From an uncultured Chroococcidiopsis sp. (lineage in GTDB: Bacteria > Cyanobacteriota > Cyanobacteriia > Cyanobacteriales > Chroococcidiopsidaceae), in NCBI GenBank assembly GCA_964248365.1, contig CAXTYC010000018.1:1-64000 (forward strand): a stretch of DNA of 64,000 bases. The letters run 5' to 3'. The notes beneath the pieces are model-generated. The model saw only the letters and a list, made by a program, of their open reading frames with translations. It was not told the DNA's origin and did not search any database. Made by a program: the position numbers and the translations under genes. Numbering within the stretch: the stretch's first letter is position 1; the number at the start of each line of letters is the position of its first letter. Shown in pieces: positions 47,278 through 62,186 of this stretch.

Positions 47278-48861
47278 ATGAAACCCGCCTGGAATAAACT
47301 ACTCATCGCCTTGAACTTGGTGACAATCTCAGCTGGCACATCAATTGTTCTACCACCAAAAATCTCTTCTGTTAGCGCTACTACACCCCACGCATTAGTA
47401 GTGCCAGCCCAGGTAGTAAAAACTCATACCATAGCCTCTGCACCGCCTCAAACGTCAAAGCCAGCCCAGACACAAAAGCCTCAAACTACATCGTCGTCAA
47501 AATTAGCAACCATCATCCGGCGACGACAAAAATTGATCGAAGCCGATCAGCTCTATTTAGCAGGACACAAGGCTGAAGCTGAAAAACTTTATCGAGAAGT
47601 AAAAGCACCTTTTGCCACCCCAACTCCACCAAAACGTCCAGAACCCATTCTAGATCCTGCCTTCCTACCCCCAGCAGGGAAAGTCTACTGGCGCGAAACA
47701 CAGGCTGGGGCGGAAGGGAAAGTGCAAACTAGAATGATGGTTCCGCTGCGGCTGCTAGTTGAGAATTATCCCCAATTTATTCCAGGTCAATTGTGGCTGG
47801 CACAAACGTTGCAAAAATCAGATCGTGGCAAAGAAGCGATCGATGTTTTAGAACAAGCAACATCCCTCTATCCAAATCAGCCCCAGTTACTTAAAGCTAA
47901 AGTAGCCGCCCTCGCAGCAGACAAAAAATGGATGGAAGCATCACTTGCAGCTCGTCAATTTGCTATCCTCAATCCCAACCAACAAAACGCTGCCGAGTTT
48001 ACCCAATTAGCAGATGAAAATCTCCAGCGCTACAAAAAGCATTTGCGCCGAAAAGTGCGGCGAAACATGTTCGCTAACATCATTACAGGCATTTTAGGAT
48101 ACGCCGTTACTGGTAGTCTTTTTGGTCCCCTCTCTGCCGTCCAAACAACTACAATGGTACTCAAAGGCGAATCATCTGTAGGCAATTCAGTTGCCAAACA
48201 GGCGCGCCGACAACTACCACTAGTAGAAGACAAAGTAGTTGTGGACTATGTGAACGAAATCGGACAAAAACTTGCTAAAGTATCCGGTCGCAATGATTTT
48301 CAATACGAGTTTTATGTTGTCTTAGACGACGAACTTAATGCCTTTGCCTTGCCTGGAGGTAAAGTATTTGTCAATGCAGGAGCGATCGCCAAAACTAACT
48401 CAGAGGCAGAATTAGCTGGATTAATTGGTCATGAATTATCTCACGCTGTTCTCTCTCACGGTTTTCAATTAATTACCCAGGGCAATTTAATTGCTAATGT
48501 AACCCAATACGTTCCCTACGGCGGTACAGTTGCTAGTCTGTTTACCTTAGACTACAGCCGAGATATGGAACGTCAGGCAGATACTCTGGGTACAAGGCTA
48601 ATTGCTTCGGATGGTTACGCTGCTGATGGTTTACGCAATTTAATGGTGACACTCGAAAAGCAAGAAAAGAGTTCTCCACCCACTTGGTTATCCTCTCACC
48701 CAGGCACTGGCGCTCGCGTTCGTTACATAGAAAATCTAATTGAGCGTAATGGTTATAACCGCTACGCATACGAGGGAGTAGCACGTCACGCCATCATTAA
48801 AGCTAGGGTGGAAAAATTGTTAATAGAGGAACAGCTGCGCCAGAAAAAGCATCGTCGATAA
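47278..48861 (+). CDS. M48-family metalloprotease with TPR region, secreted
   Basis: Signal-like N-terminus, LNAFALPGG, HELSH, YSRDMERQAD and LSSHP. Confidence 0.9.
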   Translation: MKPAWNKLLIALNLVTISAGTSIVLPPKISSVSATTPHALVVPAQVVKTHTIASAPPQTSKPAQTQKPQTTSSSKLATIIRRRQKLIEADQLYLAGHKAEAEKLYREVKAPFATPTPPKRPEPILDPAFLPPAGKVYWRETQAGAEGKVQTRMMVPLRLLVENYPQFIPGQLWLAQTLQKSDRGKEAIDVLEQATSLYPNQPQLLKAKVAALAADKKWMEASLAARQFAILNPNQQNAAEFTQLADENLQRYKKHLRRKVRRNMFANIITGILGYAVTGSLFGPLSAVQTTTMVLKGESSVGNSVAKQARRQLPLVEDKVVVDYVNEIGQKLAKVSGRNDFQYEFYVVLDDELNAFALPGGKVFVNAGAIAKTNSEAELAGLIGHELSHAVLSHGFQLITQGNLIANVTQYVPYGGTVASLFTLDYSRDMERQADTLGTRLIASDGYAADGLRNLMVTLEKQEKSSPPTWLSSHPGTGARVRYIENLIERNGYNRYAYEGVARHAIIKARVEKLLIEEQLRQKKHRR

Positions 48862-48937
48862 TATGTATGCCTGCCTAATAATCTACTAATGCAGGTAACG
48901 CCGCTCAAAGCAGTTTTAATTTTGAGGATAGTTTAGC

Positions 48938-49720
48938 ATGGCACTGCAATCATATATGTTTCAGTTTTTGAAGAGTCTGAGTTTATTGGCTGGGGTGGCG
49001 CTGCTAGTGGCTAATGGTAGCGCGATCGCTGCACCTCGAACTTCTGGTGATACTTCAAACCGCTCTGTAGTAGTAGATACAGAAGGGGATGGGGGATATT
49101 CTACACGGCAAACTCCTACACAAAGATCTTCTAGTCCTGTAACAAGCGCTACTCGCTTTAGTTGTCAACCGCTCAACGGTCAGTATACAGTAGTATATCA
49201 GCCACAAAGCCAACCAGGTCAGTATTTTCCTTGGGCAAAGCCAGTTCAGCTAGGTGGGGGCTGGACTCCCCAAAGTCGCTGCAATGAAATTGCTCGACGG
49301 CTGGAATTGTACCGCCCAGACGGTTTACAGGAAATGACTACAGGTCAAGAAAATGGCTACAACACTGTGTGCGTCACGACCGAAAAAGTCCCCGCTTGCC
49401 GAATTGTATTTACTGTACCACCTGGGCAAGATCCAGTATCAACCCGCGATCGCGTGTTTGAAAATCTGACTGTTGCCGACAGCGGACAACAAACCGATGC
49501 CGTCAACACCTACACCAGTCGGGGAGACGACGGTATTGGCAATTTGCTGAATATGGGTCGAGAAATCTTCGGCGCGGGCAAATCTCGTCCCCACTCTAAA
49601 AATATCAACCTCCAACCTTTCCTAGACCAGAAAGATGGTGGTAGTGGTACTCAACTCCAAGGAGGAGTACAATTAAAACCCAGCAAATCGAGTCAGCTAA
49701 ATCCAGCTAACTTTCGCTGA
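48938..49720 (+). CDS. COP23 domain-containing protein
   Basis: Signal peptide, RFSCQ..GGGWTPQSRCNEIARRL..NGYNTVC. Confidence 0.8.
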   Translation: MALQSYMFQFLKSLSLLAGVALLVANGSAIAAPRTSGDTSNRSVVVDTEGDGGYSTRQTPTQRSSSPVTSATRFSCQPLNGQYTVVYQPQSQPGQYFPWAKPVQLGGGWTPQSRCNEIARRLELYRPDGLQEMTTGQENGYNTVCVTTEKVPACRIVFTVPPGQDPVSTRDRVFENLTVADSGQQTDAVNTYTSRGDDGIGNLLNMGREIFGAGKSRPHSKNINLQPFLDQKDGGSGTQLQGGVQLKPSKSSQLNPANFR

Positions 49721-50007
49721 TGTATCAGTGGTTGGTAATTGGTAATGGGTAATGGGAGAACAGCAAAAGGGAAAAGGGGGAATTGGTTTAAACTTTAACC
49801 ATTCACCTAAAATCACTTACCAACTACCAACTACCAATTACCCATTACCTACATAAACTCTAGAATATGTTGGAACTCTAAATTAGAACCCTGTTCACCT
49901 GCGCTATACAAAAGCCCTAAATTAGGACGCTCTGCATACTATTCCTTGTTACCAGGCGCTTAGCCTGGTAACGAGTAAAAAGAGGCTCTGCCTTGGTGTT
50001 CACTGTT

Positions 50008-50490
50008 CTAGACAGTGCGCGACACACCAGTATCAGCCACCTTAGCTGGTAATATAATTCCGTAGTATGCTACGGCGAGGGCGGTCAGACCATTGATCAA
50101 AACATTGTAACCGAAGATCGGCATCAAACCGAATGTCGTGTTAGCAAATGGCAGCAATCCCATGATTGCAATCAAGGTGTAAGACACTACGAAAAAACGA
50201 TTGAATATCCGCGAACTGCTGTAGCTGGTATATGCGGTAATCCCAAACAGACCAACCGCGCAGTGAACAATGTTATGCAAGAAATTCGTAGGAAATAGCC
50301 CAAATACATAGCCAAATCCCTGAGAATAAGCATCATGAGCTGCGGCAGGTGGGATAAAAGACATATCTGCTGCACCTGGTAATGTCACCAAAGCTGGTAT
50401 AAATCCAGCTATTCCTAAAATCAAAAACATAATTCCGATAGCCAGAGCGCAGTAACGCTCTGACATTTTAACTATGCCTGTATTGCTCAT
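50008..50490 (-). CDS. DUF4383 membrane protein
   Basis: GIAGFIP..FGLFPTNFLHNIVH..FGLMP, four hydrophobic segments. Confidence 0.8.
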   Translation of the reverse strand: MSNTGIVKMSERYCALAIGIMFLILGIAGFIPALVTLPGAADMSFIPPAAAHDAYSQGFGYVFGLFPTNFLHNIVHCAVGLFGITAYTSYSSSRIFNRFFVVSYTLIAIMGLLPFANTTFGLMPIFGYNVLINGLTALAVAYYGIILPAKVADTGVSRTV

Positions 50491-50891
50491 TTTACTACCC
50501 CTAATTTGTGCAATGATTGCACTGTTTGTACGCTTTTTGTAAAAATCTCGTTTCAACCCGTTGCTATCAGAAACAATAGGTAATACTATCTTCAGTAGTC
50601 AGCTAAAATCGAGACTTCATACTTATGATTAAACTTAAATTTTGCCGCTCTAACTCTATCAAAAGACTGGGGTTTAGCTTAAAAACTTTGAGTTATATTT
50701 TATACAATATAACGTTGCTGTAAAAAGAGAAAATGTGCTAATATAAAAATTGATAAAAAGTATTTTTTTCATTATTGAAGTGTTTATTAGTTAATTTATT
50801 ATTACTGATTAGAAGATTAACAATAGAAGTTGACACCTCCTCTTAGGGAAGTGCCAAGCTCAGCCGATTCGTAAATTACAATAAATTACAA

Positions 50892-51074
50892 TTAGCGGAA
50901 AATCCCTAAATAAAGAGTTGCAGCAAAAAGCACAATTATCAAAACTCCCAAAGTTACACTGATACCAAATTGCAAGGAGGCGCTTTTAGTAGCTTCCGGT
51001 CCAGCAGACTGCTGGGTTATATTAGTGTGCTTCTTGTTAGAATTTGTTACTTTGTCAGAAGTCATAGCTATCAA
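50892..51074 (-). CDS. Small single-pass membrane hypothetical protein
   Basis: About 60 aa with a C-terminal TM helix. Start uncertain (ATG at 51065 is plausible). Confidence 0.45.
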   Translation of the reverse strand: MIAMTSDKVTNSNKKHTNITQQSAGPEATKSASLQFGISVTLGVLIIVLFAATLYLGIFR

Positions 51075-51406
51075 GGTTTTTGAGTATTTATCACTTATAT
51101 TGGCTCCAGATGCGAAAAACTGAATCTAACTAGAGGATTATCTAGGCTATACGCGCGAGCGTGGGGCAAAAAGGACGCTAAAGCGATCGCCTTTTCATCT
51201 GTAGCAGGGTAGAATTTTAAGTCCTGACAGATTGGATTAGATGTGCATGGGTTCATGCCTTACAATCATGACATCTTTAAAACCATTTGATTTCTTCTGC
51301 CATTGGTTGTTTGGATTAGTAGGAAGTAAAAACAAGACGGAACGAAATAGCTAACCTATGTGAATATGCAATCAAACTTGATATAAATTCGAGATCCAAC
51401 TGAACA

Positions 51407-54124
51407 CTACTCTAGAGAAGCAAAGTCCTCATCTCTAAGAGAAATAGCATAATCTCTGGCGTGTTTAGCGTAAGGAAAAGGAAAAGGCAAGGAAGTTGTT
51501 CCGGCAAAATATGCCCAGCGGTTTCTGAGTCTTTCTAGGAATCTAATTAATATTATGTTGTTAAAACTCGAATGAATCACATCATATTCCAAAAGCGGCG
51601 GATTACCAGCAGGGTGTTTTCCGTTATCCAGACGAGATTGATTCACCCTTAAAAGGTCTTGTTCGGTGTTTAGCCTTTCTCTTAACCCCAGATAAATCTC
51701 TTGTTCGAGATTGTCGCAAACATTTTTCCAAGCATATATACCATAATGACGACTGCCTGGGTTTTTGCCTATAGGGTTCCAAGCAGGTGTTTCTAAAGTA
51801 TTGCCTTTGGTTAAACTACGAACAATATGCAAACGCTTTTGACGTTCTTGTAACTGAATATGCCTTCTGAGTTCGTTAGGAAACTCCCCACATTCTAAAT
51901 TGGAATTTTGCAACCACTTGAATGTAGAACGAGCATTTTGTCCATCCATCATAAACAGGACATGAGGCTTATTTTCATTGTTTATTGGGGTGGTTAAACA
52001 ATCGGTTAAACAGTTAGCTAGAAATTGGTTTAATAACCTTTGGTCACGTTGTTGTTCTTCAGTTTCTTCTGCATTTAAATCTTCTTCACCAGAATCTTCA
52101 TAAAACTGAGAATCCCAATTTTCTGTTAAAAGATGATTGTATATTTCCCAGGATGAAACCCACCTACTATTACCTCGGCTTTGCTGTCTCAGAGAAGGTG
52201 TTGTGAATTGTACTTCTCCCAAAAATGGATTGACTCTGACTACCACTACTACCAGAGATGGTAATCCTGACCAAGTCGTTATTGAAGTGCGACGTATAAC
52301 GAGGCAACAAGTTAACCACATTTGCTCAGGAATAGAATCTTCTTTTGTGATAAAATATTGTTCTGGTAAAACTCCAGCTTGTGAGAATAAGTCAGCAACA
52401 GAATTTCTAACACGAGATTCATCTGCTTGTTCTTCAGTTTTTTCTGTTAAAGGATGAATCCGCTGATTAACATACCCCATTTGCATTAAAGCAATTTTAG
52501 TTGCTTTATAGGGGTCAGCATTTTCTGAATAATAATCCGGTTCAAAAATTTCTAGGATGGCTCCACTCCGTCCCACAGGTTTTGGTAGAACTCTTTTGAA
52601 AAACTCAATTCTTTCTTTCGCTGCTTCTATTGCTCTTGCGTCTGGAATTTTATCTACATCTGCTAAACTTAAAGGTCTTATTAATTCCTCTCCACCTAGA
52701 GTCTGAATTTTTATCCGAAACAAATCTCCTAATTGGCTAGCATATTCAACTGTCCTCATAATTCCTAAATCAGTCATAGTTTCAGACACTTCTAACTCTC
52801 GATTTAATTGGAGAACAGTGCGTATTTCTTGAATTAAATAGTCTCTTGTCGTCGGATATATGTAAAGAATCAGAATTGTCTCTAATGGGAAGCGAGACAT
52901 AAATAGACTGCTAGTTGCTACAGAGGGACGGTGCATTACAACATTTGATTCTTCTCTATTTTGTCCAGAGCTAGGCTGATTTTTGTTAATTGGTATAGGT
53001 ACTATCTCGCCAGCACGTCTTAAAGGTAAATGTTGTGCAATATGAGCATTTAATGTTCCTATATCTTTGATGCTTACTCCTGGTTTGCAGAAATGTTTAC
53101 CTAAGCGGGAATGGTAGGCGATCGCTGTTATAATCCCTTCAGTATTACCATCCCAAATCCCTGGAAGTGACCTTGATGCAATTTCTACAGGATTGGGTAG
53201 ATAGTTTGTATTTTTAATTAGTTCCGACAATGCACGGTGAAGATGAGGAGTTTCTCTTCCACGATATAGTTTGATGGGGATAATACTTAAATCTTGTGTT
53301 TGGCTGTCGAGCCAGCGAAAGCGGTTAGAAACATAAACTGTAACACCACTACTATTTACTCTGTTAGGACTTTCATTCCCTTCAAGCCACAAAGGATATG
53401 TCAACCACCTTCTCACCCCAAGTCCGCAATAAATTAGAGGTGCTGTTCTTCCTTGCAAGGTACGCAACCTGATTTTGATAACAAAGGAAATATATTTAGG
53501 AAATCTACTATTGCTATCGCCTGTAGGTCTTGGAGGAAAAGATATTAGCTCGGCTCCCGATTCACAAGTAGCCACATGGTAAAAATTTAAGGGTGGTAAA
53601 TCGGTTGTAAACTGAATTTGTCGATTATCTTCAAACAGCCTAGCTAAATAATTTGGTATTGCTTGGTAGAGGATGTCATTAGGAGGTAAATTGCAATTGA
53701 AATCAAGAGGGACAGTTTGATAATTCCATTCAACGTATCTTAATCTGTCTAAAAAATCCTCTACACAGTCAGACCCAAGCGTTCGGGTAAACTCTTCTCT
53801 CAACCATTCTTTTACCAAAAGCCCTAAATTTTCCAAAGCTGCTGGCGTTGGCTGTTGTGTTGTGTAAAGCCAAGTTCCGCCATTCCTCCAACTATTGGGA
53901 ACAGTATGAAAAGTTGAGTTCCACGCAGCAACTACCAACGGGTTTAATGACCGCACTGGTGGAGACGAGTTTCTGTTTCGCATTCTGGCTAATTGCCATG
54001 CTATATCAACGTATGCTTGAGGAGGAGTAATTGAGTAAATTTCCTCCTGATTTATCGCTTCGGTAAGTTCCCAAGCTCCTAGCTCAATCGGCTTTGTTTG
54101 ATACAAGTTGCTTTTGTTTGTCAT
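51407..54124 (-). CDS. pPIWI-RE protein (N-terminal X domain, MID, RNase H-like PIWI)
   Basis: ISFVIKIRLRT..IYCGLGVRRW, KPGVS.KD, DPYKATKIAL..GYVNQ, RVRNSVADL, DGQNARS..WLQN, ETPAW, NPPLLE and LR..LPFPFPYAK. Third gene after an REase and a helicase. Confidence 0.85.
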   Translation of the reverse strand: MTNKSNLYQTKPIELGAWELTEAINQEEIYSITPPQAYVDIAWQLARMRNRNSSPPVRSLNPLVVAAWNSTFHTVPNSWRNGGTWLYTTQQPTPAALENLGLLVKEWLREEFTRTLGSDCVEDFLDRLRYVEWNYQTVPLDFNCNLPPNDILYQAIPNYLARLFEDNRQIQFTTDLPPLNFYHVATCESGAELISFPPRPTGDSNSRFPKYISFVIKIRLRTLQGRTAPLIYCGLGVRRWLTYPLWLEGNESPNRVNSSGVTVYVSNRFRWLDSQTQDLSIIPIKLYRGRETPHLHRALSELIKNTNYLPNPVEIASRSLPGIWDGNTEGIITAIAYHSRLGKHFCKPGVSIKDIGTLNAHIAQHLPLRRAGEIVPIPINKNQPSSGQNREESNVVMHRPSVATSSLFMSRFPLETILILYIYPTTRDYLIQEIRTVLQLNRELEVSETMTDLGIMRTVEYASQLGDLFRIKIQTLGGEELIRPLSLADVDKIPDARAIEAAKERIEFFKRVLPKPVGRSGAILEIFEPDYYSENADPYKATKIALMQMGYVNQRIHPLTEKTEEQADESRVRNSVADLFSQAGVLPEQYFITKEDSIPEQMWLTCCLVIRRTSITTWSGLPSLVVVVVRVNPFLGEVQFTTPSLRQQSRGNSRWVSSWEIYNHLLTENWDSQFYEDSGEEDLNAEETEEQQRDQRLLNQFLANCLTDCLTTPINNENKPHVLFMMDGQNARSTFKWLQNSNLECGEFPNELRRHIQLQERQKRLHIVRSLTKGNTLETPAWNPIGKNPGSRHYGIYAWKNVCDNLEQEIYLGLRERLNTEQDLLRVNQSRLDNGKHPAGNPPLLEYDVIHSSFNNIILIRFLERLRNRWAYFAGTTSLPFPFPYAKHARDYAISLRDEDFASLE

Positions 54125-57100
54125 AGACAAGAAAGTCTGTTTCTTTGAGCAGGTGTAAAAATATTCCCCATAGTTCTCTAGCAATAGTCGCTTCCCAAGG
54201 AATATCAGAACTCATCCAAAATTCAAGAGTTTTAATAATAGCAACTAGGAGTGAAGTTGTTTCATCATCTTGCTTATTATCTGCGGATAGGGGAGCAAAG
54301 CTTTTATCGAGCCAATAAACATTTATTGGAACATTCCCCCTTACGCCTCTGCCAATAACTTGCCAGATAGAAACAACTTGATTAGCGCATAACGTCCATC
54401 GTTCTTTGGCAGTTAAGTCACTAAAATATACACTTTTACTAGTAAGCTTCATTAACTCAATCCATGCTGCACGGGCAAAATAATCTCCCTGCATCTGCAA
54501 TGTAGAATATTGGTGAATGAGTTGATTTGGCTCAAATTGTTGTAATGCCCAGCTATTGAGTCCCTGTACCACTTCAAACCAATCATGGGGAACTGGCATA
54601 GGTCGTTTGATAAATAAAATCGTACCAAAAGCAGCTTTTTTCTCATCATTGAGGGCATTGTGACTCCGTTCCATTGCGCCTAATACTCCTACAAGTAACC
54701 GAATAATTGATTCAGCTACTTTTTCAAATTCTCCTCGCTTCAAGCCAGGATACCAATGAACGCGATTATCTGCGTCACGACGCAATGGTTGAATAGCATT
54801 AATATCGCCTACAGGATGACGATAGCGCGATCGCAATTCTTGTATAATCCACTCAGCTTGTTCGTAGCTTCCGGTAACTCCGAGTATTCTTTCTCGGTCT
54901 GACCAAAGCGCTGGGTCATCCTGTGCTAATTCTTTCAGTTCTTCAAAGCGATCGTCAAGGAAATTTGGATACACTCCAGTAATAGCCTTTGCCATTTCTC
55001 GGTAAGCCATTTCAACTTTGTGTTGTGGAACACCGGAAATAGCGATGTATTTACCTTTTTCATTTACATTTAATTGAGGAGAAAAGACAAACTTTCCTTG
55101 CAAAATGGGGTCAGTTGATGACTTGGATTTGAGTAGTAAACTGGGACGAATAGGAATATGAAAAGCACTGCTTCCTGGTGCATAACTGGTTCCCGATACC
55201 AAAACTGTATGGGCGCTATCCCAGCCGTCAATTTCCAGCAACTTGTCAAAGTTCAACAACAAACTTTCCCCTACACCTAGATAGCGGAAGTATTTTAGAA
55301 TTCCACCTCCCTCTTTGTTGGGATAGTACAAGAAACCTAAAAGGTTTCCCACAGGAGATTCTGGAATCATTGCTAGATATTCTTGTGGCGGTCGAAGAAT
55401 TAATGGAAAGGCGTTATTCTGAAAGGCTTGTAAATCCAAAAGTTCCACCTGATTGTCCACCAACTTTTGCAGATGATGGCTTAAAATAGCTAGCAAAATT
55501 CCAAATCTAAATTTTTCAACTAATTCATCTAAGCTGTCATCTGGACAAGACAAGCCTTTTTTCGCAAGCCAATCTAGACACCAATATCGCAAATCATCTA
55601 AAGCTAAATCGCTCGTTCCTAGTAAAATTAATTCACGAGCAATGTTGGTAAGTTCATCTATTTTTTTCTATCCAAAGGATTAATGTTGCCAAGTCCATCT
55701 TTTTTTCGTTTATCCAAAGGATTATCTATAAATAATTTCAATTCACTCAATATTGCTCGAAAGGAATCTGTATCTGTTATGCCAGAGCAATCTAGCAGTT
55801 CTTGCACTATCCTTGAAAAAACACCGTAACTGTGAAAAGTTATTTTTCCTAGCCAGCCTACTAACAATGGATTCTTATTTAACTACCTGTATAGTGGAGG
55901 GATAGCTAATTCAATAATGTTGTAGCAATTAGCAAACTTTTCCCAAGATTTGTATTTAGTTTGAGGTCTATTTGAATTATTGATTTGGCTGAGTTCTATT
56001 CCAGTTTGATTAATTAACCCACCTTTTGCAATTAATTCAGCTTCTGGAGCAAACACATTATTTAATCTGCCCTTCATTAAGTCAGCTTCATCAACAAATA
56101 AAAACTCACATTCCCTAGCAACAAATTCTGCAAAGCGAATTTTATCAAGCGATACGCTTCTAGGAACTGGGGTATGAACAAAACTTTCTGGCGTTAATAC
56201 CCACACCAACCCGTTAGCAATGTCACGTTCTATTTGGTGTCGAGGACAAGTATAGTAATAAGGGCAGGTACTATCTACATTAGATCTCTTTGTGGCATTT
56301 GGTTCTTTTTGATAAAGCGCGTGACAAGGTTCTTCGCCAAAATTCCAAATGTCGGCAGATGCAACATGAGAAAGGAGAGGACATGATTCATTAAACCATT
56401 CCCTTACCGGATGTATTGCCCCCTGTTCTACATCACTTCCTGTGGTTTGAAGTATAGACTTATTAATTTTCTCTAAGTGTTCTACTCGGTTTTTACCTAG
56501 TATTGGTGCAGCAGGGATTTCTAAAAGATGTTTGAAGAGACTAGCTTTTCCGACTTGCGAGACTACATCACTAACTATTAATGCACAGCGTTTAGCATTT
56601 CTACCTCTAGAAACTAAATTAAAACTGACTACATCAATAAATGTTGACTTACCTACATTCAACAGCCCAACAATATGATTTAATCGATCTAAAGTCAAAA
56701 TAGTATCTTCAGAAAAATCATTTAAGGACTGGTTATAGACAGATAAAACAATATTTCTAAAGCGTTCATAGTAATTTAAATATATGTTGGAACGTGCTAG
56801 TCGGCAATCCATTTCTTTGGCACTTAATAAAAGTGACTTCAAGGAAAAAGTATAAGCCGGATTAGACTCACTTCGAGTTCTGACAAAGCGAACGATTGGA
56901 CTTCTGGGTAAATTTAATACACTTTGAGGAAGATTGATGACAACAGGGTCTTCTCCTTTCTTGATTTCAGCTAGCCATCGTCCTTCTTGTCTGGCTAGTT
57001 TTACCTTGTGTTGCTTAACTGCGGGAGATGTCTGCAAGACATAACGATAGACACGATGCCGATAATAACTATGTTGTCTGGAAGTGGGTATTTGTTCAGC

Positions 57101-57445
57101 ATCAGCTAAATCAAAAGCTTTGAGAACATCAGGGATGTCTTTAATGTATTCATCTAGATGATATTCCCAATCACTACCTTTGTATTCCAATAGATAAAAT
57201 CTAGCTATTTTACAAGTAAGCCATTTATTACCAATTGCTGGAAAACGATATCCTGAGATTAAATGTCTTACTTCTGTTGCGGGTTGTGTAGGTGCTACTT
57301 CCAAAAGCAGCGATAAACCTAACTCAACATGAACAATTAGCCTTGCTATTCTTCCTCTTTCTTCCTCTGCCCATCTTGCAACTACATCAGGATTTTGCTT
57401 TAATTCTTTTACTAAATTTTGATACCAATCGGTTGTATCTCTCAT
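54084..57445 (-). pseudogene. pPIWI-RE-associated DinG-like SF2 helicase (~1120 codons), broken by one in-frame TAG and one frameshift
   Basis: Walker A VGLLNVGKST, Cys cluster, Walker B FVDEAD, SGTSYAPGS, TGSYEQA, MERSHNALN and QVIGRGVRGNVP..LD.SFAP. TAG at 55885-55883. Frameshift at the A7 run 55667-55661. Confidence 0.85.
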
Positions 57446-58524
57446 TTTGTAATTATTTCCTTGGCTTGTTTGATGATTTCACCAATCGACCTTAGCTGTA
57501 ATCCCTTAAGGGCTTGAGGTTGAAATTTTTTTCTTTTACGAATAGCTGGAATATTTAAATCATTCTCATCAGGAAAGACTACAAAGGTTGCATCAACATC
57601 TGGTTGACATCTAACTTTTGATAATCTTTCTTCGCTGACATAAGACCAATCTTTTACATCAATTGCCCATCTTTGGGAATTAGGAAATTCTACAAGTAAA
57701 TCGTATCTATCAATTTGAGGATAAAGCGTGACAAGTGCGCCTAATTCAACCAATTTGTCTCGCAGGTATAATTCCCAAATGCCTGGAATAGTACCGTAGC
57801 GATGAACTCCTAGCGTTACAGCTACCCACTCGCTAATTTCTTCTGCGGGAATAACCCGAATATTCTTTAATTTTTTCTGACTTACAATTAATTCACAAGA
57901 TTTCTTGCGACAAATATATTCTCCTTCCCATAGCCGCTGGATATATCCACATCGGGGACACAGACGACACTCTGTTCCTCCAAATAAGTTTGCTACTGGT
58001 CGATAAAATCCCTCGTCGTCTAACTTGAAAAAATCTCGAACTTTTGCCAGTTCCTTTGTATCAAGCTTTTTCCGAAGTTGGGTAAGTGTCAAAACTGGAT
58101 GAGTACCAATTAACTCACGCGCTTTTCTGTAAGATTCGTCAAGCTGGTTTCTTTCGCAATACTCCTTGAGTTTCGCAAGGGTTAATTCTTGAACTTGGTG
58201 AATGCTGTCTTTACCAGATAATGCCCAATCTCTAGCAAAATCGGAAACCAACCCATATTCTAAAAGGGTTGCATTGTCAGGAATGCTTGGCACTTTGGCA
58301 GGTTCCCACCAAGATTTGATTGGTTTAGCTGCTTCTTCAAATAATTCTGGAAGTGTGGTAGGGACTTGTTTTTGAGATAATGCAGCAGCTGCACACATTC
58401 TCGACATTCCTATTCGCAAGGATTGAGGAATTTGAATACGTTTTTCTGGCGGTGTTTCCTCCCACTCAACTAACCCTGTTGCTAGATAGTGAACAGTGGT
58501 GTCATCTTTGGTTGATGCACTCAT
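57442..58524 (-). CDS. pPIWI-RE-associated restriction-endonuclease-fold protein (Y domain, Zn ribbon, REase)
   Basis: CPRCG..C..C, PGIWELYL, LYPQIDRYDL..WAIDVKDW (D..D-x-K). ATGA overlap with the helicase gene. Confidence 0.85.
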   Translation of the reverse strand: MSASTKDDTTVHYLATGLVEWEETPPEKRIQIPQSLRIGMSRMCAAAALSQKQVPTTLPELFEEAAKPIKSWWEPAKVPSIPDNATLLEYGLVSDFARDWALSGKDSIHQVQELTLAKLKEYCERNQLDESYRKARELIGTHPVLTLTQLRKKLDTKELAKVRDFFKLDDEGFYRPVANLFGGTECRLCPRCGYIQRLWEGEYICRKKSCELIVSQKKLKNIRVIPAEEISEWVAVTLGVHRYGTIPGIWELYLRDKLVELGALVTLYPQIDRYDLLVEFPNSQRWAIDVKDWSYVSEERLSKVRCQPDVDATFVVFPDENDLNIPAIRKRKKFQPQALKGLQLRSIGEIIKQAKEIITK

Positions 58525-58532
58525 ATAGCAAG

Positions 58533-58608
58533 GCTATCCGAATTTTGAAATTTAATTGCTTGGTGGGCAATGCTATCCGAATTGTGAAATTTAATTGCTT
58601 GGTAGGCA
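58533..58608. repeat. 39-bp tandem duplication upstream of the pPIWI-RE operon
   Basis: GCTATCCGAATT(T/G)TGAAATTTAATTGCTTGGT(G/A)GGCA starts at 58533 and at 58572. Confidence 0.9.
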
Positions 58609-58748
58609 TGGGTGGCAAACAGTATATTGTATGTATCGAATATTACTCAAGCGCAAAAGACGGGGTGTGGATTTATATTTTCGAGACTGGAAGGTTGTGG
58701 CGATGCCTGCGGCAACGCTAAAAGCGTACTTACTAAAATTAAGCTATT

Positions 58749-59350
58749 CTATCTCTTAATATATTCGTCATACTTAAACTCATCTTTATCTAAAGAATAC
58801 TTAACCACTTCTGGCTCAATTTCTGGATGAATAAACTGTAGCTCAAATTTCAAACCTGCTTTTTCCATGACGCGGATAGATGCTTTGTTAGCGGATATTG
58901 CTGATGACACTACTCGCCACGTACCTAATTCACAAAAGCCTTTCAATATCAATGCGCGAGATGCTTCTGTAGCGTAGCCTTTACCCCAATCCCTCGGCGC
59001 AAACGATAACCTAGCTCAATATCGTTGTCATTATATAATCTTGAATTGACATTGAACTGACTATCTAATGCTGGTCTAAATTGAAACCAACCGATAAATT
59101 CATTACTCAGCTTTTCAATAGCTGCCCAAAATCCATAACCTTCATACTTTTGGTAGTAGCTAGTAAATTTGGGTAATGTTTTATTTATGATAGTTTCGTA
59201 ATCTGTATCTATGGGATTTCCACCCTTGATGATTCCTAAATTGACAAAACGAATTACATTGCGATCGCTGTCTAATTCAAATAAATTATCAGCATCATTT
59301 TCGGTAAACTGACGTAGAATTAATCTTGGTGTTACAAGAAACACTTTCAT
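58749..59350 (-). pseudogene. RimJ/RimL-type GNAT acetyltransferase, frameshifted
   Basis: TPRLILRQF..FIGW..IELGYRL, a break near 58990 (WGKGYATEA continues in another frame), then NKASIRVMEKAGL. Confidence 0.85.
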
Positions 59351-59444
59351 ATATCTTCCTTACCATAATAAAATAGATCCTCATTGCCCAGCCAAGACCT
59401 GGTAACAAGAAGTTGAGCAGTCACGCCAAAGCACAAAACAAGTA

Positions 59445-60443
59445 ATGTCCCGAACGAATTTCCTATCAGAAACTATTCAACAAACAAAATCATTTGAAGC
59501 AGCGATGCCGTTGATGGCTCAAACAAGTGGGTCTCAATTTCTTCTCCAGCCTAACCAAACTGATAAAGTATGTGTTTTCTTTCATGGATTTACTGCTACT
59601 CCAGAACAATTTGTCGTAATAGGACTCGCATTTTACCAGGCGGGATATAATGTTTTGATTCCTTTGCTACCAGGACATGGGATTGCAGGTGATTGGGATA
59701 AAGATAATCCGCCTCCTCTACCTGAAGATAAACAAATTTATCAAAAATTCGGGTTGCATTGGCTACAAGTCGCCCAATCTTTGGGGAAAAAAGTAATTGT
59801 GGGAGGGTTATCAGGTGGTAGTACTTTGGCGGCTTGGCTTGCGTTAGAATGTCCCGAACAAATAGATCGTACTTTAGTTTTTGCGCCGTATTTGAGTGGC
59901 AGTAATAAAGTAGTTGATTTATTTGTGCGGTTGTTCAATATATACTTTCAGTGGCGGACTGAACCAGGATTAGCACATTTTGGCTATGATGGGTTTCTGA
60001 TGCCAGCTTTGCGAGTTTTTTTAGATATGGGTACTGATGTACTTGAGCAAGCACAAAAGACTGTTGCAGCGCCTATGATAATAGTATCAAGTGAGAGCGA
60101 TCGCGCTGTAGGTAATCGAGAGCATAAAGCTTTGTTTGAAGCTACCGTTGGGTTCCAGCCTAAATCCTGGTATATCAGCTTTGATCAAGAGTGGGATATC
60201 CCCCACAATATGATGACAGTAGCTGAAGGGAATGAAAATCTAAATTTACTTATAACCCTTAGCTTAGCTTATGTCAAAAGTGATTTAACTTGGGCTGAAG
60301 TTACAGAAATTAGCGATCGCTTGCGGCTGGGTAATTCATTTGATACCGTAATTAATCAACTGCATCTTGCTCACTCGGTTGCACCTGAACTTTTTACCAT
60401 AACAGGCATAATTGATTCATCTATTGAGGAACTGAAACACTAA
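59445..60443 (+). CDS. Alpha/beta hydrolase (carboxylesterase-like)
   Basis: FFHGFT, LLPGHG, nucleophile elbow GLSGG, D and H (IPHN). Confidence 0.85.
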   Translation: MSRTNFLSETIQQTKSFEAAMPLMAQTSGSQFLLQPNQTDKVCVFFHGFTATPEQFVVIGLAFYQAGYNVLIPLLPGHGIAGDWDKDNPPPLPEDKQIYQKFGLHWLQVAQSLGKKVIVGGLSGGSTLAAWLALECPEQIDRTLVFAPYLSGSNKVVDLFVRLFNIYFQWRTEPGLAHFGYDGFLMPALRVFLDMGTDVLEQAQKTVAAPMIIVSSESDRAVGNREHKALFEATVGFQPKSWYISFDQEWDIPHNMMTVAEGNENLNLLITLSLAYVKSDLTWAEVTEISDRLRLGNSFDTVINQLHLAHSVAPELFTITGIIDSSIEELKH

Positions 60444-60570
60444 TCTGTCTAAACAGCAAACAAGATAAGATCGCAAGTTAATTTTAACTTTGTTGAATAT
60501 GACATAATCACGAATATAAAGCTATTTGTCGCTAGCATATTTCTTACAACTGAGCTTTATTTTTCATTCC

Positions 60571-60822
60571 ATGCCATCAAAAAAGGTTTTTGTCCGAGAG
60601 TACACTGTTCGCGCCCATGAGCGGGTGATCAACACGCGCTTGTATAAATTTATCTGCGCTTCTTGTCAGCAGCCGACACAACGCGAATCTTATGGTCCCC
60701 GTCCGCTTTATTGTTTAGTGTGTCGTCCGCCCGTGTCTCCAACCGAGACGACTTCACACAAAAAGAAGAAACCTAGACCAGTTAAGGTACTCCCAGCGCG
60801 AAATCGAAGGAAATCATCCTAA
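60571..60822 (+). CDS. Small basic Zn-ribbon hypothetical protein
   Basis: [25 protein letters not shown] with a K/R-rich tail. Confidence 0.7.
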
Positions 60823-60884
60823 GTGGGTAATTCTCCTTTTTATATGCCTGCGGTTCTAAAAGAAAAATCCATCTTCCCACTAGC

Positions 60885-61316
60885 TTAGTGTGGATCGCCG
60901 ATTAGGGCGTATTCATATTTACCAAAAATTGCTTCCGCGTGACGATAATACTTAAATTCCATCAAGTTATAAAACGGATCTTCTAAAAAGAAGGTGCTAT
61001 GCTCCAGAGGTGAATCGACAAAGCGGTGCTTGGGTTCCTCTCTAAATAGTAGTTGTTGTTGTTGCGATCGCGTAAGCAAACTTTCCCAGTCACTTTGGGA
61101 AGTAAAAATCAGCCCAAAGTGTCTAGGATAGATACCTCGTTGAGGAGTAACAGGCTCTTTAGTGACGTGAGCCACTAGCTGATGACCATACAGATCTAAA
61201 ATCAGGGCATGACGAGTTTCACGACCAGCAATACAACCCAAGCCATCAACATAGAATGCTTTGGTTTGAGCAATATCGGTAACGGGAAAAGCAAGATGAA
61301 ATATCGTTTGATTCAT
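60885..61316 (-). CDS. VOC/glyoxalase family protein
   Basis: FHLAFPV..FYVDGLGC..GHQLVAH..PRHFG..DPFYNLMEFK. Confidence 0.9.
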   Translation of the reverse strand: MNQTIFHLAFPVTDIAQTKAFYVDGLGCIAGRETRHALILDLYGHQLVAHVTKEPVTPQRGIYPRHFGLIFTSQSDWESLLTRSQQQQLLFREEPKHRFVDSPLEHSTFFLEDPFYNLMEFKYYRHAEAIFGKYEYALIGDPH

Positions 61317-61391
61317 ATATATTAAGTTGCAGCGATTGCAAGCAAAACTTACTTGGGTAAACTAGCTTTTTTAATATTTTGGCAAACTAAA

Positions 61392-62186
61392 ATGTTTCTA
61401 AATTCATCATTTCTCAATCCTTGGCTAATTGCTGTTGGGCTGAATACAGTTTTACTGAGTATAGGCTTGATTGCTCCCAAAAAGCTCCTTACGAGGGCAG
61501 GGCTATTGCATGGCTGGTTGCTAGGTGTAATTCTTTGGGGTTGCTTGGGGTGGCAGGGATATTTAGTGGTACTTTTCTATTTTCTAGTAGGTTCTGCTGT
61601 CACGCGCATTGGCATGGCACAAAAAGAAGCCGAAGGAATTGCTGAAAAACGCTCTGGGGCGCGGGGACCTGAGAATGTTTGGGGTTCGGCACTCACAGGA
61701 ACTCTGTGTGCTTTGGGAGTGCTGATTGTTCCTATTGTTTACCCTTCCGCCAAAGTCTCCCCGCTTGGGGATGGGGGGATTACATATCTACTATTGTTGG
61801 GTTTTGTGGCAAGTTTTAGCACCAAGCTGTCTGACACCTGTGCCAGCGAAGTCGGAAAAGCTTACGGCAAAAGGACATTTCTAATTACCACCCTGCAACC
61901 AGTGCCACGCGGTACAGAAGGAGCTGTCAGTTTGGAGGGGACGCTAGCTGGGATTGTGGGTTCAGCTGCTATGTCCCTGGTAGGCTGGCTCGTAGGTTTA
62001 ATCGACTTGACAGGAGTGATATTTTGTGTCTTAGCAGCATTTATTGCCACCAATATAGAAAGCTTGATTGGGGCAACACTGCAAGCTAAGGTAAGTTGGC
62101 TGACAAATGAAGTAGTGAATATTTTGAATACTTTGATTGGTGCGATCGCTGCCGTGTTATTAGCTTTAGCATGGCAACTGGTATAA
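61392..62186 (+). CDS. TIGR00297/DUF92 membrane protein (VTE6-like)
   Basis: RGPENVWGS, KLSDTCASEVGK, GTEGAVSLEGTLAG and TNEVVN. Confidence 0.9.
   Translation: MFLNSSFLNPWLIAVGLNTVLLSIGLIAPKKLLTRAGLLHGWLLGVILWGCLGWQGYLVVLFYFLVGSAVTRIGMAQKEAEGIAEKRSGARGPENVWGSALTGTLCALGVLIVPIVYPSAKVSPLGDGGITYLLLLGFVASFSTKLSDTCASEVGKAYGKRTFLITTLQPVPRGTEGAVSLEGTLAGIVGSAAMSLVGWLVGLIDLTGVIFCVLAAFIATNIESLIGATLQAKVSWLTNEVVNILNTLIGAIAAVLLALAWQLV

Follow-up and report, generated by a model that had tools for sequence, protein, structure and literature searches.

The window analyzed here, a 64,000-nucleotide stretch of contig CAXTYC010000018.1 from an uncultured Chroococcidiopsis sp., contains at positions 51407..58524 an operon of the prokaryotic PIWI-RE (pPIWI-RE) family, comprised of genes for a restriction endonuclease (REase), a DinG-like helicase and a pPIWI-RE protein. 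The three genes are co-oriented on the minus strand and overlap, as a first-pass annotation of the same sequence had described. The REase gene (57442..58524; 360 amino acids) is intact and forms an ATGA overlap with the helicase gene at 57445-57442. The pPIWI-RE gene (51407..54124; 905 amino acids), also intact, shares 41 bp with the helicase gene at 54084-54124 (helicase TGA, PIWI ATG), and a database protein (P0001) begins at the same ATG. The three-gene reading therefore stands for the genes and their order, but not for the middle gene, which is in three pieces rather than a single open reading frame (ORF); the first-pass annotation had hinted at this only through the words “helicase repaired.” An N-terminal piece of 520 amino acids (55883..57445) ends at a premature TAG, a middle piece of 74 codons (55661..55882; 81% identity over 54 amino acids to the related genome G011) continues in the same frame to a second TAG, and a C-terminal piece of 527 codons from stop to stop (54084..55667) lies in a different frame. 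The block was also correctly described as more AT-rich than its flanks and sparse in HIP1: its GC content is 38.7% against 43.4% in the rest of the window, which places it in the lowest 1.8% of 735 same-size tiles of the genome, and GCGATCGC occurs inside it only at 53118 and 54827, a count in the lowest 2.7% of these tiles (median 7; Poisson P=0.028; genome density approximately 1 per kb). This density, together with the named close homologs, indicates a cyanobacterial host.

It is practically certain that the locus belongs to the pPIWI-RE family, and the gene order given by the first-pass annotation is right. Of the checks proposed there, the search with family profiles gave matches above cut-off for all six Pfam models, and the predicted structure of the PIWI protein folds like an Argonaute, so that neither the lack of profile hits nor the lack of a MID/RNase H fold, named there as grounds for dropping the call, was what we found. 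The pPIWI-RE protein matches PF13111 (X; 175.5 bits), PF18157 (MID; 53.6 bits) and PF13032 (RNaseH; 92.4 bits), the REase matches PF18154 (77.8 bits) and PF18156 (Y; 45.8 bits), and the N-terminal helicase piece matches PF18155 (Z; 54.5 bits). The PADLOC models PprRE (E 2.5e-22), PprDinG and PprPIWI match in addition, PprDinG recognizing both helicase halves (positions 11-398 of 930 by the N-terminal piece and 517-923 of 930 by the C-terminal piece, E 8e-76). An AlphaFold2 model of the PIWI protein, built from an alignment of 85 rows out of 139 first aligned, reached a mean predicted local distance difference test score (pLDDT) of 89.6 and a predicted template modeling score of 0.91, whereas a single-sequence fold reached only pLDDT 33. 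Every one of its top 50 Foldseek matches is an Argonaute or PIWI protein, and TtAgo aligns with Z 18.1 and a root-mean-square deviation (rmsd) of 5.8 over 544 residues. In an unbiased search of 48,161 chains with the same model, Argonautes came first, and DdmE and the CDK8 kinase module were among the matches. By sequence, the PIWI and helicase N-terminal profiles found nothing in the PDB beyond chance or P-loop matches, and no DinG structure was matched to the helicase. The signature residues of the family are R769 (131/139 members) and E846 (135/139), assigned by conservation and by their spacing to R639 and E718 of the Pseudomonas stutzeri protein.

The two partner proteins retain their motifs. 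The REase carries a zinc ribbon (C189, C192, C205, C210) and a PD-(D/E)xK nuclease motif (E251, D275, D289-x-K291); these residues are conserved among 58 homologs, and across 39 sequences the four Cys together with E251, D275, D289 and K291 show little or no variation. The N-terminal helicase piece contains the Z domain, a Walker A motif (GLLNVGKST, 260-268), DEAD at 452-455 and four cysteines (355, 374, 394, 400) that form a putative iron-sulfur (Fe-S) site, and the C-terminal piece contains the helical insert, motif III (SGTS) and motif VI (QxxGRxxR); the motif names are those of superfamily 2 helicases. When the window helicase was read with X at both breaks and compared with 49 intact homologs, Walker A, the four cysteines, DEAD and motifs III and VI were all kept. 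The REase and helicase are encoded by separate genes in the window and in related loci, and no fusion of the two was found among 6,114 longer candidates, which is weak evidence.

The helicase gene is interrupted by two separate lesions on the minus strand. At the first (55883..55885), an in-frame TAG replaces a Gln codon, from which it differs at two positions; Gln is read at this site, at full depth, in relatives from all four sequencing runs compared. The second (55641..55723) is a tandem duplication with a frameshift, in which a 42-bp and a 41-bp copy differ at approximately seven places so that a net 41 bp is gained and the frame changes at an A7 run (55661-55667). Three of the four runs contain joints with a net removal of 41 or 44 bp, which puts the helicase back in frame, the fourth giving only loose ends; the contigs from these runs are relatives, mostly 80-95% alike, and not the window strain. 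The duplication is missing from both G011 and the related locus L019, and both read through the TAG site. L019 is continuous across the duplication junction; G011 is free of both lesions, although it carries frameshifts of its own, among them a 1-bp loss in that loop. Because the duplicate copies already differ at about seven places, the gene probably carried the duplication in frame until a 1-bp loss occurred.

Breakage at this level is uncommon in the assembly. From 232 ORFs of a same-genus genome, 107 orthologs passed the filters; five were flagged, two of them were dropped as tandem paralogs and three were broken, giving 4 lesions in 40,015 amino acids, a rate at which two lesions in 1,121 amino acids have P=0.006. 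Of 11 pairwise comparisons, 10 gave a ratio of non-synonymous to synonymous substitution (dN/dS) of 0.13-0.29 and one gave 0.50, and simulated neutral drift introduced 1.4 stops at 1% divergence and 7.2 at 5%. The low dN/dS and the few stops relative to this simulation thus suggest that the loss is recent. A test for relaxed selection on the window branch was mixed (non-synonymous/synonymous changes 9/8 in helicase residues 229-520 vs. 5/18 in the C-terminal half). A functional pPIWI-RE system has its helicase as a single open frame, which the window copy lacks, and it is very likely that this copy is inactive, probably through recent inactivation.

No second whole helicase or REase of the pPIWI-RE type was found in the genome assembly. 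A second, remnant locus (G000:C33:43374-47366; 7375-11367 of L014, minus strand; GC 36.2%) is distantly related and encodes an intact-looking PIWI-RE protein of 855 amino acids with all three Pfam domains and a helicase C-terminal half of 475 codons, with neither a REase nor a helicase N-terminal half. Complementation of the helicase in trans was rejected, since this locus offers a helicase C-terminal half only.

Slicing of a target by the window PIWI protein is unlikely, and loss of catalysis likely, as judged from the model, because the β-1 strand (602-612) has no acidic residue and only D727, which ends the β-4 strand (721-727), is kept. The inferred position of the first Asp is occupied by L608, and an Asp stands in this column in only 1 of 139 members; these positions were mapped by strand order and spacing, that is, by topology and not by superposition.

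Two features set the window apart from most of its family, and these are the small new points of the present analysis. When 37 selected REase rows were placed in a tree, the window grouped with G011, L019 and the Trichodesmium locus L021 in a clade (99/100) with long branches. An N-terminal extension of approximately 80 amino acids, present in about 55 of 58 REase homologs, is missing from this clade; it resembles the LexA helix-turn-helix (HTH) domain (hhalign E 1.4e-4, probability 52%; Pfam E 0.004, below cut-off), and a fusion of an HTH to the REase has already been noted in the description of the family (PMC3702460). Furthermore, the pocket of the MID domain reads K-R-Q-R in 122 of 139 members and Y-K-Q-S (Y539-K543-Q554-S581) in the window protein and its three closest proteins. 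The latter pattern is not a product of decay, since independent relatives share it. The helicase is broken in three of four fully spanned operons of the clade, each time differently (in L019 by an insertion of approximately 720 bp), a number too small to test.

A genome scan gave 193 pattern matches, of which 155 were confirmed; the best 80 correspond to 75 loci, of which 14 were too short and were dropped. Among the remaining 61 cyanobacterial loci, 20 are broken and the other 41 retain each of the three genes whole, under a coarse scoring rule that counted two loci from one contig and scored one internally deleted PIWI gene as whole. The REase gene is broken in 7, the helicase gene in 15 and the PIWI gene in 9 of these loci, roughly in proportion to gene length. 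The helicase as a preferred target of breakage was rejected, because breaks follow length and the loci were found through PIWI motifs. An intact REase lies beside a broken helicase in 11 of the 61 loci, which agrees with a nuclease that does no harm by itself, provided that it is expressed. Some 20-25 Nostoc loci (L033, L037-L052 and others) have the same upstream and downstream neighbors, which suggests that the operon was inherited vertically at one chromosomal site and decayed there repeatedly. In NZ_KK073767.1 (L079/L080), two inverted operon copies lie approximately 15 kb apart on one contig, with the helicase split in both, and a second pPIWI-RE operon of G011 (7132-16537 of L118) has a helicase in pieces with an unrelated 151-amino-acid ORF between them and a PIWI protein of 1,101 amino acids.

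The PIWI RNase H model matched in none of 6 same-genus genomes and in 7 of 27 other genomes of the host's family, and four plasmid records hold full-length homologs; none of 28 viral pattern matches proved to be a copy. The horizontal acquisition proposed in the first-pass annotation is thus supported by composition and by the patchy distribution, but neither mobile genes nor a clean site of insertion came to light. The latter was rejected since, in the closest same-genus genome, the flanks lie on different contigs with other neighbors. The downstream flank of the window operon has nothing in common with 71 other flanks. No Rfam match at E<=1 was obtained in 48000-62000 and no repeats were found downstream that would point to a guide RNA or array.

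Directly upstream of the REase start, two 39-bp tandem copies (58528..58605), 92% alike, were found nowhere else in the genome. They lie between this start and a candidate promoter on the minus strand (58621..58678) and constitute a second short duplication in the operon region besides that in the helicase. The candidate promoter includes a 40-nt element that is 90% identical to the region upstream of the L019 REase gene (E 2e-7). A sigma-70-like match (TTGAGT-18-TATACT) overlaps the element, but it is weak (9/12 consensus), and the number of such matches is within what chance allows (2 found, 1.6 expected). The upstream element has two matches in the genome, which were dismissed because both lie within long coding genes. 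Adjoining the operon, a GNAT acetyltransferase gene (58949-59350) has lost a net 1 bp near 58993 when compared with genome G005 and is truncated at 133 amino acids. At 60526-60822, a 98-amino-acid ORF with two CxxC pairs has no Pfam match and several similar copies in same-genus genomes.

We consider it reasonably likely that the window holds a canonical pPIWI-RE operon, functional until not long ago and since disabled at the helicase, and that the intact system follows the mechanism proposed here. By analogy with DdmDE, in which an inactive Argonaute loads a helicase-nuclease on plasmid DNA (10.1101/2024.05.10.593530; PMC13618286), we lean toward guide-directed, helicase-assisted destruction of invading DNA by intact copies. 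In this model, the PIWI protein would bind a guide, probably without slicing, and would load the DinG-type helicase with its putative Fe-S site; unwinding of the target by the helicase would license the zinc-ribbon REase to cut it, and the REase would thereby destroy the invading DNA. An anti-plasmid role may be suggested by Pseudomonas sp. H2, in which mutations in an Xpd/Rad3-like helicase, a predicted component of Argonaute type III, are reported to have relieved the cost of plasmid RP4 (PMC11637435); Argonaute type III of PADLOC corresponds to the PIWI-RE systems (PMC11333966). The “possibly nucleic-acid-guided defence system” of the first-pass annotation would accordingly describe whole triads, for which we infer a defense function, and not the window copy, which is very likely non-functional. 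Its statement that guide, target and mechanism are largely uncharacterized was too strong, as one PIWI-RE protein has in vitro guide and target data and a knockout phenotype (PMC10991935). Several points weigh against our interpretation. The genes flanking the operon are not defense genes; the lesions are seen in the assembly and are not confirmed by raw reads of the strain, and a frameshift on an A7 run is a typical site of assembly error; one of the three spacings to the P. stutzeri protein misfits (42 vs. 29) in a mapping made without superposition; the evidence from Pseudomonas sp. H2 is second-hand, and a UvrD helicase and rpoB played a part there too; sensitivity to ciprofloxacin is the single phenotype known from a knockout (PMC10991935); and no phage or plasmid challenge of the complete triad came to light in a literature search that covered few subscription journals. 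In the passages found of a DinG review (PMC11981726), the pPIWI-RE family is not discussed.

For intact triads, guide-directed destruction of invading DNA is preferred over two other functions. Such triads may instead serve accessory genome maintenance by resolving R-loops or stalled or catenated host replication intermediates, without acting on invaders. Deletion of piwi-re in P. stutzeri reduced ciprofloxacin survival approximately 15-fold and caused filamentation (PMC10991935), R-loops are substrates of DinG helicases (cited in PMC3702460), and approximately 25 of the neighbor-checked loci share one downstream gene, that is, a stable chromosomal site. However, the patchy distribution fits a conflict system better, and the four plasmid-borne copies, the decay of one third of the loci and a restriction-type nuclease as the first gene also make this function unlikely. 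Alternatively, the triad might act by abortive infection: once guide and target pair, the REase would become a non-specific DNase, with death or arrest of the cell as the result, and helicase knock-out would relieve autoimmunity. Long-B, short and SiAgo-like systems with effector enzymes do act in this way (PMC11333966), the plasmid “cost” in Pseudomonas sp. H2 could be toxicity, and the loci decay frequently; yet the presence of a processive helicase points to directed degradation in cis of the kind seen in DdmDE, and decay is not concentrated in one gene but stays close to gene length, so that we regard abortive infection as improbable.

A further alternative concerns the window copy itself, which would be functional if its breaks were assembly errors or were bypassed by stop read-through and −1 slippage on A-AAA-AAA. 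The A7 run does lie immediately before the second stop, where a −1 shift would rejoin the frame; every catalytic motif is kept, neither of the other genes is damaged, and G011 shows a 1-bp loss in the same loop. Nevertheless, two separate bypass events would be required, two of the three bases of the TAG differ from the relatives' codon, the background of breakage in the assembly is low and its completeness is 99.97%. Programmed recoding was rejected, because neither feature is conserved in relatives (L019 is continuous), as recoding signals should be. A functional window copy is therefore very improbable.

A more specific scenario, which we regard as doubtful, would join these observations for the window subclade. 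This fast-evolving lineage may have lost a LexA-like autoregulatory HTH and rebuilt its guide 5′-end pocket toward the Y-K-Q of classical Argonautes, so that its system would read another class of guide and be costly, and its helicase may have been knocked out repeatedly as a natural counterpart of the plasmid-compensating helicase mutations of Pseudomonas sp. H2; the triad would then be an anti-plasmid system directed by guides, and the helicase would serve as its off-switch.

The window locus itself carries little weight, being a probably dead copy of a catalogued system, and is a poor starting point for experiments; at least 41 intact cyanobacterial operons, found among the best 80 matches, may be used instead. 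The family matters more, as a widespread Argonaute branch that no solved structure matches by sequence and for whose three-protein mechanism the literature searched offered no test. The altered pocket and the missing HTH provide a natural contrast pair for guide preference and regulation.

The system is already known: the family was defined as a three-gene island in 2013 (Burroughs, Iyer and Aravind; PMC3702460) and is covered by Pfam, by the Ppr models of PADLOC and by Argonaute type III. The window matches this island in gene order, co-orientation and overlapping termini, in the X, MID and RNase H domains and the signature Arg and Glu of its PIWI protein, in the Y domain, zinc ribbon and REase fold of its first gene, and in the Z domain, Cys-rich region and helical insert that are recognizable as sequence features of its helicase; it differs by the twice-broken helicase, the lack of the optional N-terminal HTH and Y-K-Q-S in place of K-R-Q-R. 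The overall fold is shared with long prokaryotic Argonautes such as TtAgo, CbAgo (Foldseek E 1.2e-14) and RsAgo, whereas the window protein is only about 10% identical to them and has a family-specific N-terminal region, a probably incomplete catalytic tetrad and a fourth pocket residue that is not basic. The spacing of Y539, K543 and Q554 (+4, +15) equals that of Y463, K467 and Q478 of RsAgo, which are 5′-phosphate residues (10.1101/366930; 10.1101/2023.06.08.544223). The PIWI-RE protein of P. stutzeri DSM 4166 (PsPIWI-RE), of the same family and triad context, has an Arg-to-Glu distance of 79 against 77 in the window; it accepted all four types of guide, cleaved RNA:DNA hybrids only and required D525 and D610 for cleavage (PMC10991935), whereas the window has Leu (L608) at the inferred first position and keeps only D727, a comparison made by spacing and not by alignment. 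DdmDE of Vibrio cholerae combines a catalytically inactive Argonaute-fold sensor with a helicase and a nuclease, as the window operon probably does, and DdmE aligns to the PIWI model with Z 11.7 and rmsd 5.9 over 486 residues. On the other hand, DdmD is a fused helicase-nuclease, whereas the window has separate genes and no Ddm model among its PADLOC matches, and DdmE takes DNA guides on DNA, whereas PsPIWI-RE cut only RNA:DNA hybrids. DdmDE is thus an analog of the pPIWI-RE triad and not a member of its family.

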